Positions 18,829 to 64,000 of a stretch of DNA of 64,000 nucleotides are shown in pieces. The position numbers and the translations under genes were made by a program. The stretch is taken from the NCBI GenBank assembly GCA_000004985.1, contig GG738879.1, one strand, 5' to 3'. This DNA comes from Naegleria gruberi (taxonomy: Eukaryota). Positions within the stretch are counted from its first letter, which is position 1; every line of letters starts with the position of its first letter. The notes below the pieces were generated by a model. That model worked only from the letters and a program-made list of their open reading frames with translations, was not told where the DNA came from and ran no database searches.

Positions 18829-20852
18829 ATGAGTCAAGTTTGTTATAAGAATCGTAAAGGAGATGCGGAGGATGAATTTTCGAGGTTTTCTTCCTTCACT
18901 CTTGACCATACAACACTTCGGAAGTTGTTAGTAAATTATGGTGAATATCCTTCAAAATATAGAATGCTAATTTGGAGGTTTTTATTGAATATTCCTGAAA
19001 ACAAAGAGTCCTTTGAAGTACTCTACTCTAAGGGAATTCATTTTACTCAGTACAGCCTTCACAAACGATATCCAATAAGTAATTCATCAATATTTAGGAA
19101 AATACAGAGAATCATTTCAGCTATGGCAAATCTATCACCAATTTTTGGTGCCGTGGAATATTTGCCTGAATTAATATTTCCGTTCTTAAAAGTGTTCAAT
19201 CAAAGTAGCTCAACTATCTTCGAAATAGTATTAACATTCTTTGGTATGTAACAATACTTTAAAATTACGTATTAATTGATTGAATAGTTAATTGGGGAAA
19301 GGAATGGTTTGAATTCTTCCCTAATCCACCAGCAACTGTTCTTAACTATGTTGCTTCCTTGCTTCAAATTTATGACAATGACGTACTGGAGCATTTGTCA
19401 TCTCTTGGGGTGTCTTCTGCTTCTTTTGCTTGGCCAATGTTAAAAAGCTTATTTACTGAGCTCTTTACAACTGATCAATGGCTAAGAGTATTTGATCATA
19501 TATTTTCTAATCCTCCCTCTTTTATATTTATGTTTATTGTATCATATCTGAATTATTTTAGGAGAAGTCTTTTCCAAATTAAAGAAAGAAGAGAAGCAGA
19601 AAACTTCTTCCACAGTATTCACGCTTGTGATCTTGAAAAGATTCTAGCTTTTGCTTATGACATTCAAAAAACTCAATATGAAAGTTCTGTACAAAAGTTG
19701 ATTGCCAAATCATATGGTTCATTTAGTTTCTTGCCGAAAGGTCATTATAATATTTCTATTCGCTTTCCTGAATACTCTGTAGATTATCAATTAAAGCAAA
19801 GAGAAAGAATTGTAAAAAGTGAAGAGGATTTTGATAGAGCCAGAAACAATTATATTCAATTGAAAAAGCATAATGAGGAGTTTGAAATAGAGCATAGGAA
19901 CTGGTTAATAAGACAAAAAGCATTAATTGAAGTAAGCAAAACGCAAGAAGAAGCTTCAAAGAAAATGGAAAGAGAAATATTGGAGGAAAAAGAGAGAGTT
20001 AGACAAATGGAATTGGAGGAGCGCTTAAAAAATGTAGAATACTTGCAAGAAAGAAGAAAGATGTTAGCCAATTTACATGAGGCTGAATTGAATGCGAAGA
20101 CATTAAATCAACAAAGATACATGGAAAATCTAACAATTGACACACATAATGAGATCAAACACAAAATGACGGAAATGCAATTAGGGGAAATCGAAAAAAT
20201 GGAGCAAGCTAAATTGCAAGATATTGAGTGTTTCGTAAATCCTCCATCCAATTACTATTTTACAAAGAACCCATCTGCAACTTCACCAAGAAAACCAGAA
20301 ACTGTAAATATCAAACCACTTGCAAAAGAGGTTATTATCCCTGTATTTATCCCACCTGAACAGGCAAAACAGCCAGTTTCAGAAGCGATAACAAAGGACA
20401 CGACAGAGATTAACTCTCCTGAAATGTCAGAGCCGAATTCTAAAGAATCAAGTTTTGCAGATTGTCTTCAAGTGCATCTACTAGGAAATGAAATTAATTC
20501 CTTAGAAAAAGAAATAGAATCAACAGGAAAGAATCTGACTCCAAAAGATATCAAACTTCAGGCCATCATACAACCTGAAATCCCTCAAAAGAAAAAAGTG
20601 AAAAAAAAGAAAAAATTGGTAGAAAAGTCTAATGAACAAACATTAAAACAGAAGAAGAAAGAAGCATCTCCAAAAAAGGCTGTTACACTTCCTTCGCTCA
20701 AACAGATGAACTCACGAATGAGAAAACAAAACAAAAAGTATTACCAGAAAAGCAAAGGCAAGCAAAATCTCCAAAAAGAAAGAGCCCAAAGAAGAAGGAA
20801 ATCAAAGAAAGCAATCTTAAGGAGAAACCACAAGAAATGGTCACCCCGTTAG
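18829..20852 (+). CDS. TBC-domain Rab GTPase-activating protein with Lys/Glu-rich coiled-coil C-terminal half. Exons 18829-19243 and 19288-20852.
   Basis: TBC features (RMLIWRFLLNIPENKESFEVLYSKG ... WLRVFDHIF). 44-nt intron GTATGT...TTGAATAG joins the two ORF-track pieces in frame (…TFF-G|VNWGKEWFEFFPNPP…). Confidence 0.75.
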
Positions 20853-20981
20853 GTCATACTTCCCAAATTTCAACAAGTTCAAACTCATCCCAACCGGATG
20901 AGGATCGATTCAGATTATTACAAGAACAAATATCAAAACAAAAATCAGAGCTCAAAAAATCAGATAGGACTATGAAACATA

Positions 20982-21851
20982 TTGAATCGATTGCATCAAA
21001 CATTTCCAAACCATCAAGTAAATCCTTCAAACATTTCAAGGAGTATTTCATCATCCCCATCTATTGAGAGCTTAAAGAACACCAATGTTTTTAATAGGTT
21101 TGATTATTTAAAGAGCGTAGATTCTAGAGTTGATGATTTAATTCAAAAGAAGTTTAAGGAGTTTATTACAAGAAAGGTTGAACAACCAAGAGAAAAGAGT
21201 TTTAATGTTGAAGAGCAAAACCTTTCGTTCCCTACAAGCATATCAAACACAAACAGCGCATCAATACTTAACTCCTCTGCATCAACACAGTCACCAAATC
21301 CAACACGAAATAGCACTCTCAGAGGAACAATATCTGCCACTCTTAACCCAAGTTTTTCTCAAACTTCTTACTTGGCTCCTTCTTCATGTATTGATAAATC
21401 CAGTGACAATGAGAGCTCTTCAGATGTGAACTCTTTATTAAGACATAGTAGCGAATTTGAGACAACATCCTCTAAAAGAATGAACCTTTCTTCTGATTCA
21501 CATTTATACTCAGCATCCCCAAGATCCTATTCTGGAAGTTCAGGTTACAAATCGAAGACTACAACAGGTACATCCGGATCTCATGTAATTAATGCATATG
21601 TTTCCATTTCTGAAGCTCCTTATCATACCAAGACATCAGATGAAATAGTTAATGAGATTTCAGATACAAGAAGTATTGATGAATTACTTGAGAGTTTCAA
21701 CACGTCCTATCCTTCAATTTCAAGCAGTATAGAATCAATTAAGATCAAGCCACAAGACTATTCCTCCCTTGATCTAAGTTTTTTTAGTGACGAAGATGAA
21801 GTTACGACAAGTGTAAATACTTCAGCATTAATGACAGAAAAAGAATTTTAA
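20982..21851 (+). CDS. Ser/Thr-rich low-complexity protein (289 aa from a TTG-initiated ORF). Possibly a 3' continuation of the TBC gene or a separate gene.
   Basis: An 870-nt stop-free ORF in 65% AT DNA is unlikely by chance. No ATG at its 5' end. In the same frame as the TBC gene, but separated from it by stops; an intermediate +2-frame ORF (20636-21067) bridges them. Its stop codon overlaps the stop of the convergent cyclase gene. Confidence 0.45.
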   Translation: MNRLHQTFPNHQVNPSNISRSISSSPSIESLKNTNVFNRFDYLKSVDSRVDDLIQKKFKEFITRKVEQPREKSFNVEEQNLSFPTSISNTNSASILNSSASTQSPNPTRNSTLRGTISATLNPSFSQTSYLAPSSCIDKSSDNESSSDVNSLLRHSSEFETTSSKRMNLSSDSHLYSASPRSYSGSSGYKSKTTTGTSGSHVINAYVSISEAPYHTKTSDEIVNEISDTRSIDELLESFNTSYPSISSSIESIKIKPQDYSSLDLSFFSDEDEVTTSVNTSALMTEKEF

Positions 21852-24800
21852 TTCTTAATAAATTTCTCAGCTTCAAGTTCAGCATCAACATTGTGAGTTT
21901 CAATAATAGGTATTGGTTGTTGGTTTTGCTTCATGTTATCGTCTCCTATTGGAATAACAATATCATACTTATCAATATCTCGTTTCATACTCTTAGACAT
22001 TTCTTCTAAAGAGATGTCCGTTTCGTTTGGAATAGGATGTTGGTAATGTTTCTCTTTGAGAATGTAGGTAGTAATTTGTCCTTTACCTTTGATTTCAACA
22101 CCTTTTCTCTCATCGAATTCAAAGATATCATAGACTCTTTCGTAGGTTTGTCTGGTTACTTGGATTTTACCTGGAATACCAGTTGATTCCATTTTAGATG
22201 CAAGAGTAACATTTTCACCCCACAAATCATAAGCAAATTTCAATGTACCAATACAACCAGCAATTACACTTCCTGTGTGTAACCCAATTCTAATATTTAA
22301 AGTTGTTTTCTTTTCTAGATTATACGCATAAATAACAGAATACATCTCCATAGCAAATCTTAATACTTTTTCTGGATGGTCTGATTGTTGAAGATGTAAA
22401 CCTCCAACACAAAAGTAAGCATCACCACTAAATTGTAATTCAGATTATTATCTAATTTTCAAGCAACTTACATTGTTTTAATTTTTTCGAGTCCAAATTT
22501 GCTAATACCTCTATCGAATCCGTTAATAATAGCATTCAACATTTGAATCAAATCAATAGCTGACATGCCTGATGACATTTTGGTAAAGTTAACCATATCA
22601 CTAAATAAGCAAGTGGTATCATCAATTTTTTCTGAAATGTAGGTTTCACCAGCTTTTAACTATTATTTTACAGTAAATGTTCAATAACAAAACTTACTCT
22701 TGCAGCTACTTGCTCAGGAAGAATATTCAAAAGTAAAGAATCACTCTTCTTCTTTTCTTCTTCAATTAACATATTATGTTTCTTCTCTGAAGTGATATCT
22801 TTGATAAACAAACTGATTAGGTTACTCTTTTCAAATGATGAGACACTCATGGATACTTGAGCAGGGAATGTTGTTCCATTCTTTCTTTTAGCTTCCACCT
22901 CAAAAGACTCTCCATAACTTCTTATGGCATTACCCATCGATGTTACTGTATCTCTTATCTTATTAGAGCTTGCATCTGTAAATAAAAGAGATGGTGGCTT
23001 TCCTAATATTTCATCAGCCTTATAACCCAACATATTCAAAGCACTTGGATTGATAATATCAACAAACCCTGTTTTGCTATTCAACACAACAGCTCCATCA
23101 ACAGCAGCATCTACAAAAAGTTTAGAACATGAGCAGGCTTGAAAACTTACCCAAAATAGCTTTTGTCTTTGAAAATTTCTCTCCTTTTGCAGCCTTCTTA
23201 CCATCAGAAAATGTAAAGTATAAAATATAGTTCCTAATCTCCTCGAATTGCTCCAAAACATCATATTGAATGAAATTAAACATCCTTCTTAATTGGTGGT
23301 TTTCATTATCGAATCTTTTGACTTGTAAATACTTTGTGTAAGTCAATATAAGTAATATTGCAACAGAAACGCTTGTTATTGCTGGACTGATAATTCTAGT
23401 AGGTGATTTGTAAGTGTCTACATATCCAGTAAGTACAGAATACATTTTGGAAGTGAATTCACTGGAAATGGCAAAAATTCCAATAAATCTTTCTACCAAA
23501 ACACTATTAATATATGTATGTCTGTATGCATCCTCATTGAATCTATCTGCTGATAAAGTATATGCATCCATGAGTTGATCCAATCCATAACAAGTGTAGT
23601 TTTCTGCAGTGCAGTTTTGGCTCAAAATCTTGATATCTAAAGAAGAAACTCCTGTTATGCCAGAAAATCCATTCTCAATTGTACCGTAACGATAATCTAA
23701 CCAGGCTTCCATCATCTGTTGTGAATGTTGAATTATTTCATCGTGGAATGATTTCATGCTAGTTTGTAATATTGAAGAGTCACCTAATAAAAGTTCTCCA
23801 AGTTTAAATTTAGCTCTTTGTGAAATTTGTAATACCTTTGTACCATGCTCTACCTTTAACATAGTGTTGAATGAAGTCTGCATCATGTCCAAGCACTCAT
23901 AAAGGAGTAAAGCACTTGCAATAGCAGTGAAGAGGAAAATAGCAATAATGAGTGCTGAAATTATTCTCTTAGGAGTGAAAATAGATTTTTGGATTTTCAC
24001 AATCTTATCCTCGGATTTTTGTTCCAAATGGTGAAATACTGTACCCACAATATCCTTAGGAAGCTTTGCAAAAAGCTTTGTTAATTTTTCCATATGAAGT
24101 AAGTGAATATAAGAGAAAATTGTGTAGACAATAATGAATAGCACGTATACCACAAACACACCAACAAGGGTAAAAATGAAAACATTCTTTTCCTGATTAA
24201 GAAAAGTGTCACTTCTTGCGATCAAAGTGCCACAAAAACTTTCCAGACCACCAGTAATGGCTATTCTGTTTAGCCATATATACAAGAACTCATAATTTTC
24301 ATAAATATTCATGTAATCATCAAGTTTCCAAGCATATAGCTTTGTAGCAATAGTGTGGAGCTCATTTGTAATATCAGATAAGGAAGTATTTTTAGGGGTT
24401 GATATAAGACTGGATACAGATCCTGTTTGTAGTACTGGAACAAGAACTATTTTGTCTGCATAAACAAACTGCTTCATACTCTCTACCTCAAATCTTTGTT
24501 CGTTCATAATATCTTTAACCTTTTGTGTAATTGTCACTATGCTCTTAACTCTTGCCTTGTGGTTTGCCCATTCTGATTTAAATCTATTGGTAGTGTTGGT
24601 TGGAGATAATATCTGAATGTACCTAATACCTGAAAGAATTAAGTAGGGAACAGGAGACACTTGGCAAAATTGATTTACAGTAGTAATACGGTCGCTATCA
24701 TCTGCAAGTCCCAGATTCAACCCTAAAACAATTGCAATAATAGCAATTGATATAAATCCCAATGATTGAAGGAAAATAAATTTCTTTTTGCTTTCGTTTG

Positions 24801-26839
24801 GCTTGTTGATGGCTGACCTGTATATAGTTTGTTTGTCTTTTTTGTAATCTCCATATTGACTAGCTGATTCCAAATTTTCCATATCGTTCTCATCTTGTTT
24901 TGGTTCTAAGTAATTTGGACCATCATCTACATAATTGACAGGTAACACCTTGTTGCCTGGTAAATTACGTTTCTTAAATTCTGACTTTGAGTCAGAGGAA
25001 AATCTTCGTTTCTTTGATTGTTCATCCTCCAAAATGTTTGCTTCAGCATAAAATTCATCTGCCAATTCAGCTTCAAAAAGGAATTCTTCTAAAAACTTTG
25101 CATAGCTTCTCAATACTTGGGCGTTATTATGGAAATTAACAAGTAAGTTATTGAACGTTGTACTTGAATTTTCCATGTATGTGTGCATCATTTTAACCAA
25201 ACTATATACCTTTTCCGAGTTTTCCTCATTAGACACAAAGTGTTTCCAGAATAGCTTTTGATATTGTCTTAATCTTTCCTGTTGTTTCTCCACAGTGTCA
25301 AGAATGTGTCTAAGTTCTAAAGAATTTTTTCCTGTTGAAATTGAAGCCTCTATTTCCTTAGTTCTTTGGTAAACAAGGTAACGTAATACAAGATTAGAGT
25401 TCTTTTTACCTGCCTTTGCAAGTAGGTGAAGGCAAAAGCTTGGTGAATATTGATCTCCCATCATTTTCTTAAATATATATAAAGATGAAATTATCAGAGT
25501 GTAGGTATCTAATTCTAATCTTTGATTTGTAGCAACCTTTATCAAGTTGGTTATTAACTCATCTTCTTTAGTTTTGATAGAGAATTTCAAATATAAGTTT
25601 AAAAATTTTGGATTGACTAATTCATTAACACTAGTTTGAACGGTGATATTCTCGTTCTTGAAATCAGTTAATCTTCTTCTGACATATCTCATAACTATCT
25701 GTGTATAAATTTCAACAATAGAAAATCCAATAAAGAAAAATATAATCACAGAGCCAAATCCAACACCAAAAAGATAACCCAAACCAACATCTTCACTTAC
25801 AGGATCATTCGCTACAATGGCCAGTATGCTGGATATTGCAGCACCTGCTTTAGATAAGTACAACCCACCAAAAATCGAATTCACAATTCTATAGTGAAAT
25901 GGTAAATCATAAATTAGAAAACCAAATATAAGGAGTGTGAAAAATAAAAAGAGTAAAGGTCTTGCAATAAATGCTTGGGGTGGTAATATTTGAGAAATGA
26001 TTAAGTGGATTTGGTTGATTACTACAGCAGAAGCAAATACAACAGGGCTGTCCATACTTAGCCAAGACTTACCCTCAACCCATGTGTCACACGATAGAAG
26101 TATTCCAAGAAATGTGAGAGGTAATTGTAATATCATAAATAAAAGTGATATGGCTGCAAAGGAACCATTTAAAGGACTCCAACAACCTATGGTAGGAAAC
26201 CTTCTTAGAGCATATTGAGCAACTCCATCCACTACTAGACCTTGTTTAGAATAATCACAAGCCCAAAAAGCGGTCAAGCAAAATACAAATCCAAGTCCGA
26301 ACACTCCAAAGAACATGCATATAGCTCTAATTGTATTCTTGATTTTTGATGAATGCTTACTTCCTCTATGAAGAGCTTTATAAGCATAGTAGATTGCAAC
26401 CAGAGCTATCAACTCTAACACAGCAAGTATTACAGCAACGGCAAGAAAGAGCTCATAAGGATACCAACTGGCACCTAATGTTCTTGGAACTGCAATAATC
26501 CTAACACCTAATTTTGCAGACTCACCCCAATTAAATTCTAAGATGGTTAATAAATACATTATTTCAGGAATACTTACCAGACTCCCAACCTAGAGCTATT
26601 GATTGCTCGACCAATACTATATTCAATAATATGAAAAGCCAATTTGGTAATGCTTTTGGCAATTTTATAGAAACTAGAAAGAAGAATAATGTATCTTCTA
26701 ATTTTCCAACAATACTACTACCCCGAGTGAGGGTTGTATTACTAGTTTTTGATCTACTAGAAGAGCCTTTTGAAAAAACCGACTCTCCATCATGTCCTAC
26801 GGGTGAATGATCACTAGAGTCTCGCATCGAGTAGGCCAT
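21848..26839 (-). CDS. Polytopic membrane sensor nucleotidyl cyclase: two multi-TM modules + PAS domain + class III adenylate/guanylate cyclase catalytic domain, about 1610 aa. Exons (minus strand) 26578-26839, 23151-26537, 22698-23110, 22472-22659, 21848-22427.
   Basis: Four GT-AG introns of 38-44 nt (GTAAGT donors) restore a continuous frame. Exon 1 has one TM. Exon 2 has about 8 TM, a long coiled cytoplasmic region, then further TM segments flanking two Cys-containing loops. Exon 3 is a PAS fold (DAAVDGAVVLNSKTGFVDIINPSALNMLGY...). Exons 4-5 give the cyclase motifs FSDMVNFTKMSS...LNAIINGFD...KIKTIGDAYFCVGGLH...GLHTGSVIAGCIG...LWGENVTLASKMESTG. AC versus GC specificity is not determinable by eye. 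Confidence 0.85.
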
Positions 26840-27135: not shown

Positions 27136-27960
27136 ATGATGCGCTTCAGAGCAAGTGTAAAGTTATTGAATAGGTTTGTTAGTGATTACACAAGCACAAA
27201 ATACCTTTCGGAAGAAACTGAACTTCTATGCAAAATAGTTGCCAATTCAACTTTAGGAAATTATAAGAAATTAGAAAATGATTGGAAATTAATTCAACAA
27301 CATCCAACAAAGAGCAGAATGTTATCCATGATGGCCATAGAATTAATTTCAATGAATTTTTGTTTTGTTGGATTTCCAAAAGTTTTAAATTCCTTGTCAA
27401 CTTTAAAATCCATCTCTACTAAATCACATGACAATCAAAAGCCATTTTTTACCGAAGATGAATGGCTTGAATTGACTAAATTATCGGATTCTGATTCTTT
27501 CCATCAAGATAGAATTAAGAGACAACATTTAGGAGAACAAACAATGAAGAAAATTTATGGAGAATCAAATTATTCAAAGTTAGCTGCAAAGTTTAAAACA
27601 CTTCATCCATTAGTCAACCAAAATATTCACATGAATGCTTATGGAATGGTATTACAAGATAGAAGTCATGTTTTTCTTGCAATGAGAGAGCTTTCCTCGG
27701 TTGTGAGTTTGTGTTATTTTGTAGATACATGTGGCCCTCAATTAGTTGCTCATATGAAAGGTTTTACCAGAGTGTACGATGAAAAGGAATTAGGATATTC
27801 CATCCCACTAATGAATCCTCATGTTATTGAAACAGAAAGTCGTGCCAAGTTGTGTTTGAAAGGAGTTTTCGAATTGACCAGTGAAATGTATGGCCTTAAA
27901 GAACCTTTGAATGAAATGTGGCAATCTCTAGAAACCTCAAATAAGAAATATACTCTCTAG
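27136..27960 (+). CDS. Hypothetical protein (274 aa) with basic, presequence-like N-terminus
   Basis: Uninterrupted ORF. N-terminal MMRFRASVKLLNRFV resembles a mitochondrial targeting peptide. No family recognised. Confidence 0.5.
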   Translation: MMRFRASVKLLNRFVSDYTSTKYLSEETELLCKIVANSTLGNYKKLENDWKLIQQHPTKSRMLSMMAIELISMNFCFVGFPKVLNSLSTLKSISTKSHDNQKPFFTEDEWLELTKLSDSDSFHQDRIKRQHLGEQTMKKIYGESNYSKLAAKFKTLHPLVNQNIHMNAYGMVLQDRSHVFLAMRELSSVVSLCYFVDTCGPQLVAHMKGFTRVYDEKELGYSIPLMNPHVIETESRAKLCLKGVFELTSEMYGLKEPLNEMWQSLETSNKKYTL

Positions 27961-28236: not shown

Positions 28237-29247
28237 ATGGAACAACAAGCTGAAGAACAAGTGATAATTAAATTATATCTTTCCAAAGAACATATTAGAA
28301 GATTTACAATTCCAAAGATCGCATCTTATGAAGATTTAAAGAGTAGAATTATTCAATTCTATGATGAAGTTGGTCAGACAATTAACCCATCCGAAGATTT
28401 AGATTTACAATATTGTGACGATGATAATGAATGGACTGTGTTGAGAAATGAAGATGATTGGTATTGTTGTAAGGCAATTTGTCCAACAAATATTAAAATC
28501 AGAAAGCCTTCAATGTGGATGAAAGCACAATTTACTTACAAGTCAGGGCAACAAGCTGTTATTCAATCTTTCAACAAGGAAAAGAAATATTTGGTAGAAA
28601 AGAGCAAGCAAATCTTCTCTCAAGTTAATGAAGAATTCCAAAAATTGAGTTCAAATCAAGAAGTTAAAAAGCTTGAAAGTACTATGTCACATGCTGTTAA
28701 TGACTTTATTGAAACTGTCACACCATTATTACAAACAGCCACAAATACCACTTGTGAATTCATTTCATCAGTTGAAAACTCACTGAAAACTAGTGCTTCC
28801 TCAAGTGAACCTCAATTGATCAGAACTGATGATGTAGTTGAGGAACCAATTGATGAAGAAGAAGAGCAATTAATTGCTCAACAAACTGTACAACCAACCG
28901 TTCAAGGTGATACTATGGAAAAATCAGGATATGTCTGGGTTTTAGCTGATAATGAAAAGACTCAAGTCGTTGCTCAACAACAAGCTGAACCTGTTGTTGA
29001 AACACCAGTTGTTGAAGAACCTGCTGTTATTGAAACACCAGAAGTTGTTGAACCAGTTGCTGAAGAACAACCTGCTGCTGTTGTTGAAACTATTCCTGAA
29101 CCAGTTGTTGAAACACCAGTTCAATTCGCTGAACAAATGAAGATGTTAAGCTTAATGGGTTTCACTGATGTCCAAAAGAATATTGAATTATTGACCAAAC
29201 ACAATGGAAACCTTTCACTCGTTGTTGATGCCTTATTAGCTATGTAA
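28237..29247 (+). CDS. PB1-domain / UBA-domain protein (p62/NBR1-like selective-autophagy receptor candidate) with acidic PEV-rich repeats
   Basis: N-terminal PB1-like fold (VIIKLYLSKEHIRRFTIP...DLDLQYCDDDNEW). C-terminal UBA (FAEQMKMLSLMGFTDVQKNIELLTKHNGNLSLVVDALLAM). Repeats VVETPVVEEPAVIETPEVVEP. Possible LIR-like SGYVWVL. Confidence 0.65.
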   Translation: MEQQAEEQVIIKLYLSKEHIRRFTIPKIASYEDLKSRIIQFYDEVGQTINPSEDLDLQYCDDDNEWTVLRNEDDWYCCKAICPTNIKIRKPSMWMKAQFTYKSGQQAVIQSFNKEKKYLVEKSKQIFSQVNEEFQKLSSNQEVKKLESTMSHAVNDFIETVTPLLQTATNTTCEFISSVENSLKTSASSSEPQLIRTDDVVEEPIDEEEEQLIAQQTVQPTVQGDTMEKSGYVWVLADNEKTQVVAQQQAEPVVETPVVEEPAVIETPEVVEPVAEEQPAAVVETIPEPVVETPVQFAEQMKMLSLMGFTDVQKNIELLTKHNGNLSLVVDALLAM

Positions 29248-56898: not shown

Positions 56899-59800
56899 TT
56901 AAAGATATTTGACTAATAACTTGACATCATGAACTTGTTTGTTAATTCTATAAAATGGTCTTAATGTTCTACCCAATAATTCAAGTTGTTCATCTTCTCC
57001 TTGTTTGAAAATGAAATACTTGTAACAATCAATTGGATTCCATTTCAAATTCAAATCACAAATTAATTGAGATTCTTCCAAGGTTGATTCATTGAATGAC
57101 TTAGTAATTTCAACTTGTTCAATTGGTTTCAAGTTCAAATCTAACAATTTTTCACCAATATTCAAATAACCTAATTTCATTGCATAATAATCTTCTTCAT
57201 TACTATCAATAATGGAATGTTCATCAGAAGGTGATGGAGTTGAATCACTTTGAATACAATCAATATAAATATTTGTAATTTCATCATCGAATTCAATAAT
57301 ATTATTCAAAGAATAAGTTTTTAATATCCAACCACCATTCATCATTTCAGATTTAACATTTTGATCCATTTTACTCAAATCAATTAAACCTAATTTTACA
57401 GTTTCAATTAATAAATGTAAAGAAGAATATTTTTCATTAAATTCATTACTATATTTAAATGCATATTGAATATTTGTTATATTATTATTTAAATTATTAT
57501 TTAAATTATTTAATTTAATACTAGTTTTAAATAATTTAAATCTTGTTAATTTTACTTCATCTTGATTAAATTTTCCATAAAATTCTAAACAATTTCCACC
57601 TAAAAAGGAATCTAAATAATTAAAATTCCAATTAATTGAATATTCTTGTCCAATATTTAAAATTTTATAATTTCTAAAATTAGGTAATAAATCTTGTTCA
57701 GAAATATCATTCCATTTTAATACATTTTGATTATTTCCATAAATGTAATAATTTAATCCAACACCTGAATTAAAAAATGTTGAAAATAAATTTTTAATTA
57801 ATTTTTCATTTAAATAATTTGAATTATTTTCATTTTTACTTTTTAATTTTAAATTTAAAGAACAATTTGAAATTCTTGATCCAAAATTTCCCGCCCAATT
57901 TTCAACATCCTTTCCACCATGTTCCCAAATTATTGTTTTAATTAAATTTATATTTTTTAAAATAAAATTAAAATTAATACATTTCCAATTAGAGTTACAA
58001 ATAATTTCACCAGAATTAAATTCTTTAATAATTTTATCATTTTTATCTAAAAATTTAATTTTTAAATAAAATAAATCTTGACAATTTGGTTCAGTTCCTT
58101 TTATCCAACATTTTGCATTTAAAATTAAATTATTTAAATTATTATTATTTCCATTTATATCAATTTCATTTAATATAAAAGGTAAATTAATTAATTGTTC
58201 CATTTTTGACCAATTAAAAGATGAAATAAAAGATTTTGATTGATTAAAATCATTATTTAAAGATTTAATCCAATTTCCATTTATATTCCAACCTTCAAAT
58301 TCATTTAATTGTCCATTTCCATTTTTTAATAATTCAATAATTTTATAATTTCCATTCCAAAATAAATTTTCAATATTTTCATATTCATTTCTAATTAAAT
58401 TTAAATTTTCAATATTTTCTAAATTTGTAAAATTATTAAAATAATTTTCATAAATAAAACCTGGAGCAAATAAGGCAATAGATGTTTCATATTTGTTAAT
58501 TTCATTTAATGCTATTTTAGTATTAAATTGTCCACCACCATATTGTCCTCTACCAAATATATCTATACCTGTAAATATTTTATATTTATTTAATTTTTTA
58601 TTTAATTTTAAATTATTTTCTATTAAAATATTTTGTAATAGATTTAAATTATTTAAATTATTATTATTTTGTAAATTATTTTCTAATAAATTAATAAAAT
58701 TATTTAAATTAATTAAAGAATTATTTAACATTTCAGGTTTCCAATTATAATTTAAAAAAATTCCATCACTTTCATTTAAAAAAATTAAATTTTTTTCATT
58801 TAATTCATTTTGCCATTTTAATTCTCCATTTGGATAAATAATTGAATCATACCAAATTATTTTAGAATTTTTAATTAATTCTTTACATTTTAATTTTAAA
58901 TATTTAATAAAATTAATTAATTTTAAACATAAATCTTGATTTAAATTACATTCTATATTTAGAAACCATCCATCAAATTTATAATAAATTGCTAAATTTA
59001 TCAAATAATCAGCAAATTGTTCATAATTTCCATTTAAAATTTTAGAAATTTCTTTACTTCCTTCATCCCATTCAAAAATTAAATTTCCTAAAACTAAAAT
59101 TCCATTTTTATGTGCAATTTCAGTCCAACCAACAGGTGGTATTGTAATTCTATTTAATATTTAATATATTTAATATTATATAATATTTAATATTTAAAAT
59201 AAATTTAAAAAATAAAAAAAACAAACCTTTCATGACTAAAATAAATAAAAATATCAACAAATTGCCAATAATTAAAATTAAAAGTTAAAAAATCATTTCC
59301 ACTTTGAATAAATTTATCATTTAAATATCCACCTTTCATATCATGACATAAAATTACTTTTTGTCTATTTTTAGTAAAATTATTTTTAAAATTAATTTTA
59401 GCAATATTTAAATCATCTTTAAAATTAAATTCTTGATTAATTGAATAAATTGGTTCTGAAATTATTTTAAATGGTTCATTAGATATTTCTAAAGATGGAA
59501 ATGAATAATTAAAATTAAAATTAAAAATTTCATTTGAAAAATAAAAAAATAAATTTTGTAAAATTCCTTTAAATGGTTTTGAATTTTCTAATTTTGGTGG
59601 AATTATAAATGGATTAAAATTATTTATAATTGAATTTAAATTATTAAAATTTAATTCTTGTTCATATTCTAATTTATTATATTTAGTAATTTTAATTAAT
59701 AATTTATTTTTAAATATTAATTGAATATGATACCATTTATATAAATTAAAATTATAATTAATTATTAAATCATTAATTATTAATTTGTTATTTAAATATG

Positions 59801-60062
59801 TTGATAATTTAATTAATAAATCTCCTTTTTTTAAAATTGTAAAATAATTTGAATTTAATAATTCTAAAAAGTAAATTGAAAAGGAAATATTTAATGTAGA
59901 TTCAGAATTAGAAATTATTATTGGTGCATGAATTTTTAAATTTTCATTATTATTTGTAATAAAATTACATGATGGAAGTAAATTAATTAAATTTGATGGT
60001 AATGAAAGTTGTAGATGTGGATCGGATAGATGATCACTATCATTACTAATACTTTCATTCAT
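56899..60062 (-). CDS. Cytosolic endo-beta-N-acetylglucosaminidase (glycoside hydrolase family 85, ENGase). Exons about 59227-60062 and 56899-59149. Extremely Asn-rich.
   Basis: GH85 signature across the 77-nt intron (GTTTGT...AAATAG): KVILCHDMKGGYLNDKF...NYWQFVDIFIYFSHE|RITIPPVGWTEIAHKNGILVLGNLIFEWDEG...FDGWFLNIE. The long C-terminal region is dominated by N/I/K-rich low complexity. Start codon uncertain (first in-frame ATG at 60062; the ORF opens at 60125 with TTG). Confidence 0.8.
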
Positions 60063-60295
60063 TTTATTAGTATTATTATTATTAACAACTTGGTGATGAA
60101 TGTGAAGAGGTTCACCAGCAAGCAAATCGAGAGATGATGTAAATTTTTTAGGCTTGATCTTTCAATACAATTTCAGCCTTGTTTTCGTAAGTACCCGGCA
60201 GAGAAGATAAAATTCAGTGTCAAACATAATTGGCGCCAATCAAACTACAACAACAACAATAACACTAAGAAGATTAAAAACAAAGAATTATAAAA

Positions 60296-61546: not shown

Positions 61547-63073
61547 ATGCATCAGTTGTTGTTGCTGCTGTTGGTGCTTCGTCATCCTTCATGGCATTAT
61601 CATGATCTTCATCATCCGAAGATAATTCGTAGTACACTATCATCATCATCAACAACATCAACAATATCATCACTTCCATGTAGAGAAAAGGAAATTGAAC
61701 AAATTAAAACATCACTATCAAATTGTATACAATTATCATGTCCTAAAACAATGTACATTGCAGGAGAACCAGGTACAGGTAAAACAGCCTGTATTAAACA
61801 AGTATTAAATGATTTGGAAAATGAATATAATAATACATCATCAAATAATAGTAATAATAATAATAATAATAGTAAAAGTAATAGTAATAATAATAATATA
61901 CATAAATTTAAATATATATTTATTAATGCAATGAAATTAAATCAACCATTTAAAGCCTTTGAAATTATCTATGATCAAGTTATTAAAAATTCCAATAATA
62001 AATTAAAAATCAAGCCTAAAAAAGCGCAATATAAACCACGTATAGAAAATTATTTTAAAAATTCCAAAACATTTAACAAACGTAAATATTTAATTATAAT
62101 AATAGATGAAATGGATTTTTTTGTAACAAAAACATCTAATAATACTAAAAATATACATTTATTATATGATTTAGTTGATATAACAAGAGATTCTAATAGT
62201 AAATTATGTATAATTGGAATTAGTAATACAGTTTCATTATTAGATCAATTAAATAGTAAAATTAAAAGTAGATTTGATGAAATGATAACTTTTTTTCCAT
62301 ATGAAAATGATCAAATTAGAACAATAATTGAAAGTAAAATATTAACAAATTATGATAATTATTTTGAAAAGGGTGCAATTAAAATGATTGGTTCTTTAAT
62401 TGCTAGAAAAGCAGGTGATATACGTCAAGCTATTGATATTATTAAAAGATGTATTGAAATTTATTCTATAAAAGGAAATTTACAAGAAAAGAAAATTGAT
62501 TCTTTATTTGTTAAATCAATTGCAACTGATTTTACAGATAGATATCCAATTTCACAATTAAGTATTTATCATAAAATATTTTTATATTGTACTATTTTGG
62601 AATATGAAATGAAATTAAAAAATTTAAAAGAAAATCAAAATTTAAATAATTATGAATCAAATCCAAATAATTTATTATTTGAACGTATTGTAATGAGATT
62701 TCAAAATTTATTAGCAATGTTTGAAAATTCAATGAATATAAATAGTATTACTACTACTACTACCACTTTCAATAATAGTAATAATAATAATTTAAATAAT
62801 AATAATAATAGTACTTCCAATAATAATAGTAATAATTCAATGAATAATAATAATTTAAATAATTCCAATAATATAAAATATTCATTTATAAATCCAAGTT
62901 TAGATCAATTACAATTAATAATGTTTACATTATGTGAATTGGGAATAATTTCAATTGATAATGATAAAAGAGAACGTTTACCAATTATACATTTTGAAAC
63001 TGAATATCAATTATTATTATTTAATTTAGAACAAGATGATGAAATGAAACCAATTATGAAATTAAATAAATAA
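61547..63073 (+). CDS. Cdc6/Orc1-family AAA+ replication initiation protein; N-terminus uncertain
   Basis: SLPCREKEIEQIKTSL...MYIAGEPGTGKTACIKQVL (Walker A), IIIDEMDF (Walker B), sensor and winged-helix regions. Long poly-Asn inserts. The first about 40 codons of the ORF (MHQLLLLLL...) look non-coding and overlap a better-looking antisense ORF. Confidence 0.7.
   Translation: MHQLLLLLLVLRHPSWHYHDLHHPKIIRSTLSSSSTTSTISSLPCREKEIEQIKTSLSNCIQLSCPKTMYIAGEPGTGKTACIKQVLNDLENEYNNTSSNNSNNNNNNSKSNSNNNNIHKFKYIFINAMKLNQPFKAFEIIYDQVIKNSNNKLKIKPKKAQYKPRIENYFKNSKTFNKRKYLIIIIDEMDFFVTKTSNNTKNIHLLYDLVDITRDSNSKLCIIGISNTVSLLDQLNSKIKSRFDEMITFFPYENDQIRTIIESKILTNYDNYFEKGAIKMIGSLIARKAGDIRQAIDIIKRCIEIYSIKGNLQEKKIDSLFVKSIATDFTDRYPISQLSIYHKIFLYCTILEYEMKLKNLKENQNLNNYESNPNNLLFERIVMRFQNLLAMFENSMNINSITTTTTTFNNSNNNNLNNNNNSTSNNNSNNSMNNNNLNNSNNIKYSFINPSLDQLQLIMFTLCELGIISIDNDKRERLPIIHFETEYQLLLFNLEQDDEMKPIMKLNK
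61846..61905. repeat. AAT/AGT trinucleotide microsatellite (poly-Asn/Ser coding) within Cdc6/Orc1; a second tract at about 62770-62880
   Basis: Direct reading: aataataataataataatagtaaaagtaatagtaataataataat. Confidence 0.8.
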
Positions 63074-63124
63074 TATTTTTTGAACATCACATTAATATAA
63101 TTTATTTGTTCTTTTTGTAATAAA

Positions 63125-64000
63125 TTATAATTCATCTTTATTTTCTAAAGCAATAATTGAATTTGTCTCATCAGATAATTTCCATTCCATATTATTTTTA
63201 TCATTTTTATCATTTTTATCATTTCCATTATTTTCATTTTCATTATTTTCATTTCCATTTTCATTATTATTTAAATTAGATGAAGGTAATAAAAGTTTAA
63301 AAGGAATGTCTAAACATAAATGTTCAATCATTTCTCTTCTTTGTGGATCATGTTCTAATTGTTGATATTTATAAATTCTTAAAGTAGCTTCATGTGTACC
63401 ATTTAAAATGGAATATAAAGGTCTTTCTATATTAATATGATATGTTTTGTTTAAATTTATAATTGGACAATTTGAATCTTGTAATTTACAATTAATTTCT
63501 AAATTATTTTTAGATTGGTTTCCTAAAAAAGAACCACAACAAATATCATATGGTCCTTTATATTTAATTTTTTGACCTGTTTCTTCATGCCATAATTCTA
63601 AATTATAAAATAAATGATTAGTTTCCATAATTGGTTCATTAAATTTAATATCCATTTCAATTTTAACACCAGGTGTATTATATCTAGTAGGTACAATTGT
63701 TAAATGTGAAGTAATTAATGAAATTAAAGAATCTTCTTCATCATAACAATGTTTCCATTGTATAAATTTAGTATATGGTTTTGTAAATTTATTTTTTAAT
63801 GATTTAATTTTAATATTTCTATTATTAATTTGATCATTATTTAATTTATTTAAATTTTTAACATTGGAATTTAATGTTTTAAATTTTACTTTTTCTTTTA
63901 AACTTGCCTTTTCTTGACAATTTATTTGTATATTATTTAATATTGTTGTTAATAATAATAATAGTGATAATAATAGTGATAGTATTGTTGTTGTTGTTGT
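63125..64000 (-). CDS. Secretory/ER-lumenal protein ending in KDEL, 5'-partial (runs off the window end)
   Basis: ORF 63125-63655 ends ...ENKDEL*. The same frame stays open upstream to 64000 and encodes a hydrophobic signal-peptide-like stretch (ILSLLLSLLLLLTTIL) near the window edge. Internal N/E/D/K 9-nt repeats. Confidence 0.6.
   Translation of the reverse strand, partial: TTTTTILSLLLSLLLLLTTILNNIQINCQEKASLKEKVKFKTLNSNVKNLNKLNNDQINNRNIKIKSLKNKFTKPYTKFIQWKHCYDEEDSLISLITSHLTIVPTRYNTPGVKIEMDIKFNEPIMETNHLFYNLELWHEETGQKIKYKGPYDICCGSFLGNQSKNNLEINCKLQDSNCPIINLNKTYHINIERPLYSILNGTHEATLRIYKYQQLEHDPQRREMIEHLCLDIPFKLLLPSSNLNNNENGNENNENENNGNDKNDKNDKNNMEWKLSDETNSIIALENKDEL
63181..63270. repeat. 9-nt tandem repeats (TTTATCATT / TTTTCATTA variants) encoding an NENGNENNENENNGNDKNDKNDKNN tract in the KDEL-protein gene
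   Basis: Direct reading. Confidence 0.8.

Follow-up and report, generated by a model that had tools for sequence, protein, structure and literature searches.

A 12-transmembrane receptor cyclase of Naegleria gruberi as a candidate half of an asymmetric adenylate cyclase

RESULTS

A five-exon gene encodes a membrane-anchored PAS-cyclase protein

We analyzed a stretch of 64,000 nucleotides (nt) from contig GG738879.1 of Naegleria gruberi (assembly GCA_000004985.1), hereafter the window, and focus on a gene on its minus strand (26839-21848) that encodes a class III nucleotidyl cyclase with two membrane modules and a PAS domain. Five exons and four introns joined cleanly into a spliced coding sequence of 4830 nt, which specifies 1609 amino acids (aa) plus a stop codon and has no internal stops. 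All four introns have the form GTAAGT...TAG, with lengths of 40, 40, 38, and 44 nt. A preliminary description of this DNA had proposed five exons between 21848 and 26839, a protein of about 1610 aa, introns of 38 to 44 nt, and a catalytic motif, KIKTIGDAYF, that is itself split by an intron; our reconstruction agrees on each of these points. The parts of the gene are as follows (the slash marks the splice point).

26578..26839, minus strand: exon 1, with the ATG at 26839; Ser-rich cytoplasmic N terminus and the first transmembrane (TM) helix, TM1 (residues 66-86)
26538..26577, minus strand: intron 1, 40 nt, GTAAGT..TAG, phase 1, GWES/EF
23151..26537, minus strand: exon 2, residues 88-1216; TM2-TM8, TPR_TmcB region, disordered linker, and 4-TM sensor module
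23111..23150, minus strand: intron 2, 40 nt, phase 1, KAIL/DAAV
22698..23110, minus strand: exon 3, PAS domain together with the larger part of the putative helical transducer
22660..22697, minus strand: intron 3, 38 nt, phase 0, VAAR/LKAG
22472..22659, minus strand: exon 4, start of the cyclase domain, including Lys1415 and the metal-binding Asp1375
22428..22471, minus strand: intron 4, 44 nt, phase 2, within KIKT/IGDAYF
21848..22427, minus strand: exon 5, remaining cyclase domain with the catalytic residues Asp1419, Arg1463, Asp1484, Thr1491, Lys1495, and Lys1530; C-terminal tail; stop at 21850-21848

Exon 2 by itself holds an open frame of >1100 codons in DNA of 33% G+C. The annotated ortholog of Naegleria lovaniensis has introns at the same four codon positions and in the same phases, plus four introns of its own, and a metagenomic fragment (P0003) codes continuously across the point of intron 2. 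The long exon 2 frame, the profile matches described below (E values of 1e-55 and 5e-16), and the conserved N. lovaniensis introns exclude a chance origin of the gene. No paralog of the gene was found elsewhere in the 64,000-nt window.

The deposited model lacks two coding segments

The gene is already in GenBank and is not new. A cluster look-up identified the locus as NAEGRDRAFT_69664 (XP_002675302.1, UniProt D2VL52), a "predicted protein" of 1471 aa whose entry carries no functional name. The two models agree in start codon, stop codon, and the four short introns, and their proteins are 100% identical wherever both are coding. However, XP_002675302.1 omits residues 201-304 and 334-367 of the 1609-aa model (TM4-TM6 and TM8), which correspond to two segments that are spliced out in the deposited model.

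25888..26199, minus strand: segment 1, 312 nt, in frame; TM4-TM6; conserved in orthologs
25699..25800, minus strand: segment 2, 102 nt, in frame; TM8; conserved in orthologs

Both segments are free of stops and far longer (312 and 102 nt) than the real introns (38-44 nt). Because they are in frame, lack stops, and specify TM helices that the orthologs in Naegleria and Willaertia also have, we regard them as coding; judged on reading frame and conservation, the five-exon 1609-aa model is better than the deposited 1471-aa model, and our analysis thus corrects the public record. Could the five-exon model nonetheless be an artifact, with the membrane exons and the PAS-cyclase exons belonging to separate genes, or with the seven-exon 1471-aa model being the true one? 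Both additional introns in that model do begin with GT and end with AG, one of them with a GTAAGT donor. Nevertheless, we consider an artifact very improbable: the deposited model itself uses the identical start, stop, and four introns, N. lovaniensis and Willaertia have full-length orthologs encoded by single genes, the positions and phases of the four introns are conserved in N. lovaniensis, and the disputed stretches have the coding features just listed.

Membrane modules, helical-repeat region, and PAS domain

The anatomy of the membrane and linker regions was derived from hydropathy and from an AlphaFold2 model of the exon 2 product (1128 aa; mean predicted local confidence [pLDDT] of 83, predicted template modeling score [pTM] of 0.60). 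The protein is divided into six regions.

25687..26644, minus strand: N-terminal 8-TM module, residues 66-371; one TM helix in exon 1, seven in exon 2
24985..25662, minus strand: cytoplasmic helical-repeat region, residues 380-605, including the TPR_TmcB match at 494-596
23329..24783, minus strand: second membrane module, residues 673-1157; four TM helices and two extracytoplasmic loops
22791..23163, minus strand: PAS domain, residues 1213-1323; range spans intron 2
22642..22781, minus strand: putative helical cyclase-transducer/HNOBA-like segment, residues 1327-1360; range spans intron 3
22055..22635, minus strand: class III nucleotidyl cyclase domain, residues 1363-1541; range spans intron 4

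The N-terminal module is polytopic, as the preliminary description had stated, with 8 TM helices (residues ∼66-86, 115-145, 150-176, 209-236, 252-271, 279-297, 304-330, and 336-371) instead of the approximately 9 counted there. It displays an extracytoplasmic beta-hairpin (181-198) with family-conserved cysteines, Cys181 and Cys206, on either side and a glycosylation sequon at N211. No solved structural relative of the 8-TM module was detected. The "coiled cytoplasmic linker" that had been described after it is indeed cytoplasmic and helical, and is a TPR_TmcB helical-repeat domain (PF25474, residues 494-596; 45.2 bits versus a cutoff of 27, E of 1e-11 in Pfam). An acidic/basic, disordered linker (∼605-650) lies between this region and the second membrane module.

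The second module has four TM helices (about 674-700, 871-900, 944-970, and 1134-1156) and, as first described, two cysteine-containing loops (701-870 and 971-1133), each of ∼165 aa. Cys712 and Cys856 are nearly invariant, Cys1063 and Cys1070 are conserved, and the loops carry four N-x-S/T sequons, which together fit an extracytoplasmic location. Structural comparison revealed that both loops are of the four-helix-bundle type, all-helical save one beta-hairpin, and resemble in fold only those of bacterial NIT and four-helix-bundle sensors (NasR, NarX/NarQ, Tar/Tsr, PcaY, PilJ, and TorS). A NIT domain is a contiguous double four-helix bundle, whereas the two bundles here are set apart by a TM hairpin. 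The signal for an internal duplication was weak (hhalign probability of 62%, E of 7e-5), and the two halves of the 4-TM module may be an old duplication.

Two other identities of the second module were considered. CHASE or Cache domains, which had been proposed as a check, gave no match in the Pfam scan at E ≤ 1 and were ruled out as the identity of the loops. A Foldseek search of the PDB with the 1128-aa model returned no match below an E value of 0.1, and a Tweety/prominin-like topology, suggested by a weak match to TTYH2 (E of 0.47), was dropped because the NIT/4HB matches were much stronger.

The PAS and cyclase folds that had been read from the sequence were both recovered by hidden Markov model searches. 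PAS_9 matched residues 1223-1323 (E of 4.7e-16, 59.4 bits versus a cutoff of 27), and the PAS profile scored 34.6 bits versus 22.6 in Pfam. The closest PAS structures in the PDB are the heme sensors FixL and DosP, with FixL the best (E of 2e-4). A heme-binding PAS domain of the FixL/DosP type was rejected, since the proximal His position, which we take to be the one on the F-alpha helix of FixL, is not His. The helix that follows (1327-1360) aligns with the pre-C2 helix of adenylate cyclase (AC) 9 and gave a subthreshold match to HNOBA (16.6 bits versus a cutoff of 23.4, E of 0.0058).

The cyclase domain lacks the transition-state Asn/Arg pair

The cyclase domain matched Guanylate_cyc (PF00211) at residues 1363-1541 with an E value of 1.3e-55 (188 bits versus a cutoff of 21.9), the match spanning positions 3-182 of the 183-position profile, and PDB matches to AC9, AC8, and AC5 reached E values down to 1e-68. 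We aligned the cyclase domains of the whole family to the query, with a fish (flatfish) AC7 as the internal reference, and read eight positions: metal Asp 1, specificity Lys, metal Asp 2, phosphate Arg, specificity Asp, transition-state Asn, transition-state Arg, and phosphate Lys. In the query, these are Asp1375, Lys1415, Asp1419, Arg1463, Asp1484, Thr1491, Lys1495, and Lys1530. The patterns, in the same order, are as follows.

24 family representatives: D-K-D-R-D-N-R-K, the full set
Orthogroup A (the query and its N. lovaniensis and Willaertia orthologs): D-K-D-R-D-(T/I)-K-K
AC7 C1: T/H at the Asn/Arg positions
AC7 C2: N/R present; second Asp replaced by Ser

Thus, the transition-state Asn-x3-Arg has become Thr-x3-Lys in the query, and the alignment with AC9 C2 gives the same two replacements. 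Within orthogroup A, the Asn position varies, being Thr in Naegleria and Ile in Willaertia, against an otherwise conserved motif, which suggests that this residue is out of use. Lys1415 and Asp1484 form an ATP-type specificity pair, answering the proposed comparison of Lys/Asp with Glu/Cys in favor of the AC type, and they indicate that the domain has adenylate (ATP)-type specificity. In a heterodimer, the working specificity pair would come from the partner. The PDB scores are C1/alpha-like: soluble guanylate cyclase (sGC) alpha1 scored 127 bits versus 91 for beta1, and AC5 C1 scored 92.5 versus 81 for AC2 C2.

What does the loss of the Asn/Arg pair mean for activity? PMC12264004, citing Yan et al. 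1997, describes the pair as essential for catalysis. The chytrid cyclase NeoR carries T455/K459 in place of NxxxR, is inactive alone, and forms heterodimers with a single active site when combined with RGC1 or RGC2 (PMC12264004). On alignment, the Thr/Lys pattern is what characterizes the C1, sGC-alpha, or NeoR half of a heterodimer. A self-sufficient homodimer carries all six catalytic residues on one chain, namely two metal Asp residues, two base-specifying residues, and the transition-state Asn and Arg. The query has the first four (Asp1375, Asp1419, Lys1415, and Asp1484); Thr1491 stands in place of Asn and Lys1495 in place of Arg, and both residues are also replaced in the orthologs. The query cyclase is therefore unlikely to be self-sufficient.

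The best single-domain matches to the query cyclase domain and transducer helix were PDB entries 4p2f, 5o5k, and 7yz9 (E of about 2e-45), named "Adenylate cyclase" in the PDB, which we take to be mycobacterial Rv1625c/Cya-type membrane adenylate cyclases. Unlike the query, enzymes of this type form homodimers of 6-TM chains that carry the six catalytic residues in full and lack a PAS domain. That these closest matches are homodimeric bacterial enzymes would fit an alternative in which the query is a self-sufficient homodimeric receptor adenylate cyclase that tolerates Thr1491 and Lys1495, with lower or differently regulated activity. Its metal, base-specifying, and phosphate residues are all intact, Lys is similar to Arg, and most paralogs look homodimeric. 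Nonetheless, the essential role attributed to Asn/Arg in what PMC12264004 relays of Yan et al. 1997, the inactivity of NeoR alone with the same T/K pair (PMC12264004), and the drift of the Asn position between Thr and Ile all speak against it, and we judge this alternative unlikely.

The loss of two catalytic residues would also fit a pseudo-cyclase, that is, a TmcB-type receptor or scaffold whose cyclase domain binds nucleotide or dimerizes without catalysis. Dictyostelium TmcB proteins reportedly influence cyclic AMP (cAMP) signaling (PMC8516963; PMC12750705), and Pfam defines the TmcB family solely by the TPR region, so cyclase-free relatives may exist. However, both metal Asp residues, Lys1415, Asp1484, Arg1463, and Lys1530 are strictly conserved in three genera at overall identities of 54 to 67%. 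This strict conservation of six residues speaks for a nucleotide site that is still in use and makes a pseudo-enzyme less likely; we regard it as improbable.

A sister orthogroup shows the complementary defect

The closest paralog of the query is Willaertia ABK040_006184 (35% identity), which together with N. lovaniensis C9374_012229 and N. gruberi NAEGRDRAFT_60042 constitutes orthogroup B. In these proteins the motif reads KIKTIQEKYF, KIKTIGEKYF, and KIKTIQSKYF, with Glu or Ser standing where the second metal Asp would be. Orthogroup B also has the Lys/Asp specificity pair and keeps YD(V/I)WGDAVNxxS; the Arg that follows is seen in Willaertia and N. lovaniensis, and the N. gruberi model stops matching just before it.

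Neighbor-joining trees of 34 and of 43 members of the family used about 1500 columns after trimming and 200 bootstraps. Orthogroup A was monophyletic in 200/200 replicates and B in 198/200, and A and B were sisters in 184/200. This topology points to a duplication before the Naegleria-Willaertia split, followed by loss of complementary residues in the two copies. Such complementary loss in a sister orthogroup is hard to attribute to chance, which counts further against a self-sufficient homodimer.

The model of NAEGRDRAFT_60042 (P0039, outside the window) has 2426 aa and runs from the cyclase domain into unrelated sequence directly after WGDAVNAAS. An intron is probably overlooked where N. lovaniensis orthogroup A has one (ASKM/EST), and the model is probably fused to a downstream gene.

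Half-site signatures were also seen in other family members. P0028 has Thr at the Asn position. In Pharyngomonas P0092, both metal Asp residues are replaced (by Thr and Glu) and Asn/Arg are kept. P0072 is without the second Asp; its stretch between the metal-Asp positions cannot be aligned to the family, and that model may be wrong. Complementary degeneration may have occurred more than once in this family.

The five-part architecture is common in Heterolobosea

The best full-length relatives of the query are N. lovaniensis C9374_010202 (1619 aa, 67% identity) and Willaertia magna ABK040_006139 (1582 aa, 54%). A HMMER scan of the exon 2 product against 1.84 billion representative proteins revealed 168 relatives at E ≤ 1e-3, at least 35 of which have the complete order of N-terminal module, TPR region, 4-TM module, PAS, and cyclase; many are shorter fragments. 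The architecture, which had been called unusual, is therefore common in this group. Look-ups of 30 representatives returned N. gruberi (nine different genes), N. fowleri, N. lovaniensis, Willaertia magna, Acrasis kona, and Pharyngomonas kirbyi, and more distant TPR, PAS, and cyclase proteins occur in the amoebozoans Mastigamoeba, Mastigella, and Cavostelium. Heterolobosean paralogs (NAEGRDRAFT_71278, 71437, FDP41_001886, C9374_007051, and proteins of Willaertia, Acrasis kona, and Pharyngomonas) have all five parts in common with the query along their full length, at 20 to 35% identity. Most of these paralogs keep D-K-D-R-D-N-R-K, whereas in orthogroup A the Asn has become Thr or Ile and the Arg has become Lys. 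Naegleria genomes contain about 80 to 100 cyclase genes each, with varied combinations of TM and PAS regions (PMC9928731; PMC9283941). The query protein is an ordinary member of a lineage-specific, experimentally uncharacterized heterolobosean family.

A second N. lovaniensis protein, C9374_011566 (P0180; 625 aa), clusters with orthogroup A and matches the N-terminal 44% of the exon 2 product at 68% identity; it could represent either a partial duplicate or a haplotig of the assembly.

Orthologs and paralogs of the query were already annotated with PF25474, the TPR region shared, above the Pfam threshold, with Dictyostelium TmcB; in the heterolobosean protein, this module is fused to PAS and cyclase domains. 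The tmcB family, after which the TPR profile is named, is reported to act in cAMP signaling during Dictyostelium sexual development (PMC8516963; PMC12750705). A profile search aimed at Dictyostelium TmcB returned only five close relatives, with no Dictyostelium sequence among the matches listed, and the likeness to Dictyostelium TmcB described here concerns the TPR region.

Neighboring genes and base composition

A RabGAP-TBC gene (19359-21851, plus strand) lies tail to tail with the cyclase gene, its stop codon (21849-21851) overlapping the cyclase stop (21848-21850, minus strand). Since the two coding ends overlap at their stop codons, the 3' untranslated regions of the two genes must overlap on opposite strands. 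RabGAP-TBC is the convergent downstream neighbor of the cyclase gene in both N. gruberi and N. lovaniensis, a case of conserved synteny. Upstream by about 300 bp and divergent is an open reading frame (ORF) of 274 aa (27136-27960, plus strand) with no Pfam match, followed by a gene for a protein with PB1 and NBR1-type UBA domains (28237-29247, plus strand).

Elsewhere in the window, the G+C content drops abruptly to 13 to 19% at 57300-60000 and 61800-64000, versus ∼33% elsewhere, and long ORFs persist there. These stretches include a protein with GH85 (ENGase) and FBA domains that is very rich in Asn, Ile, Lys, and Leu (56899-59004, minus strand), with its N-terminal piece at 59205-60125 (minus strand), and a Cdc6/ORC-like AAA+ ORF (61547-63073, plus strand) whose first ∼250 nt have 36% G+C and whose remainder has 16 to 19%. 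The compositional boundaries at these low-G+C stretches are sharp and lie inside genes.

DISCUSSION

With moderate confidence, we favor the explanation that NAEGRDRAFT_69664 is a 12-TM receptor adenylate cyclase that would provide the metal-binding half of an asymmetric heterodimer, with the sister orthogroup as its best candidate partner. This retains the earlier interpretation of the protein as a sensor cyclase, with three amendments: the gene was already deposited, the architecture is common, and the missing Asn/Arg pair makes the protein unlikely to be self-sufficient. In our model, the two four-helix-bundle (NIT/4HB-like) loops would sense a ligand or a physical cue outside the cell, and the PAS domain may sense a cue inside it. 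The signal would pass from the last TM helix to the PAS domain, on to the helical transducer element, and then to the cyclase domain, which would act in a head-to-tail dimer. Orthogroup A, as the C1/alpha-like half, would contribute both metal Asp residues and the phosphate-binding Arg1463; the partner, for which orthogroup B (NAEGRDRAFT_60042) is the best candidate, would contribute Lys, Asp, Asn, Arg, and the phosphate Lys. Of the two sites in the pair, one would then be active on ATP and the other degenerate and possibly regulatory. We infer heterodimerization of A with B from their aligned sequences.

Precedents for this arrangement exist. In the mammalian transmembrane adenylate cyclases (C1/C2), in sGC (alpha/beta), and in NeoR/RGC1-2, one half has the metal Asp residues without NxxxR, and the other has NxxxR and base recognition. 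C1 and C2 of AC7, as aligned here, display the same residue split as A and B, and NeoR has the identical Thr...Lys replacement (PMC12264004). The known asymmetric dimers differ from A/B in their unrelated membrane and sensor parts, and the partners in A/B would be two separate 12-TM PAS proteins with the specificity residues Lys/Asp (ATP), not Glu/Cys. In particular, a mammalian transmembrane adenylate cyclase is built as 6TM-C1-6TM-C2, whereas here a single C-terminal cyclase domain follows TM helices arranged as 8 + 4.

Several observations weigh against this explanation. On the catalytic side, Lys is a conservative replacement of Arg, so a weakly active homodimer is possible. Orthogroup B retains the first metal Asp, and the Glu at the second position in two of the three species might still bind metal, so that B need not depend on A; conversely, A could pair with any of the many fully canonical paralogs. 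The A/B relationship was derived from a simple distance tree, and the 2426-aa N. gruberi model of B is visibly misfused after the cyclase motif. On the sensory side, the Pfam scan returned no NIT, 4HB_MCP, CHASE, or Cache profile match (CHASE and Cache at E ≤ 1), which makes the likeness of the loops to bacterial sensors purely structural. Moreover, PYRHEHDGY of FixL aligns with ASSNKIRDT in the PAS domain, where both FixL His residues are replaced, by Asn and Ile.

A further step would be that A and B constitute an obligate heterodimeric receptor adenylate cyclase, which arose by duplication and complementary loss before the Naegleria-Willaertia split; each protein is then predicted to be inactive by itself and active in combination with the other. 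We put this forward tentatively, as a possibility suggested by the residue patterns. If true, it would represent an independent reinvention of the principle seen in C1/C2, sGC alpha/beta, and NeoR/RGC, and asymmetric single-site cyclase dimers would have evolved repeatedly, including in a deep-branching excavate lineage. Because each subunit would have its own double four-helix-bundle ectodomain and PAS domain, two different external signals could converge on a single active site. The fusion would also tie the membrane module of Dictyostelium TmcB directly to cAMP synthesis, a "Rosetta stone" that connects the TmcB family with the production of cAMP.

Almost none of the cyclase genes of Naegleria have been studied. 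To these, our analysis adds a corrected public gene model, the description of a TmcB-type and a helical-bundle membrane module, and a sister pair with complementary catalytic defects. If A and B do form such a pair, the number of cyclase genes in these amoebae would not equal the number of distinct enzymes.

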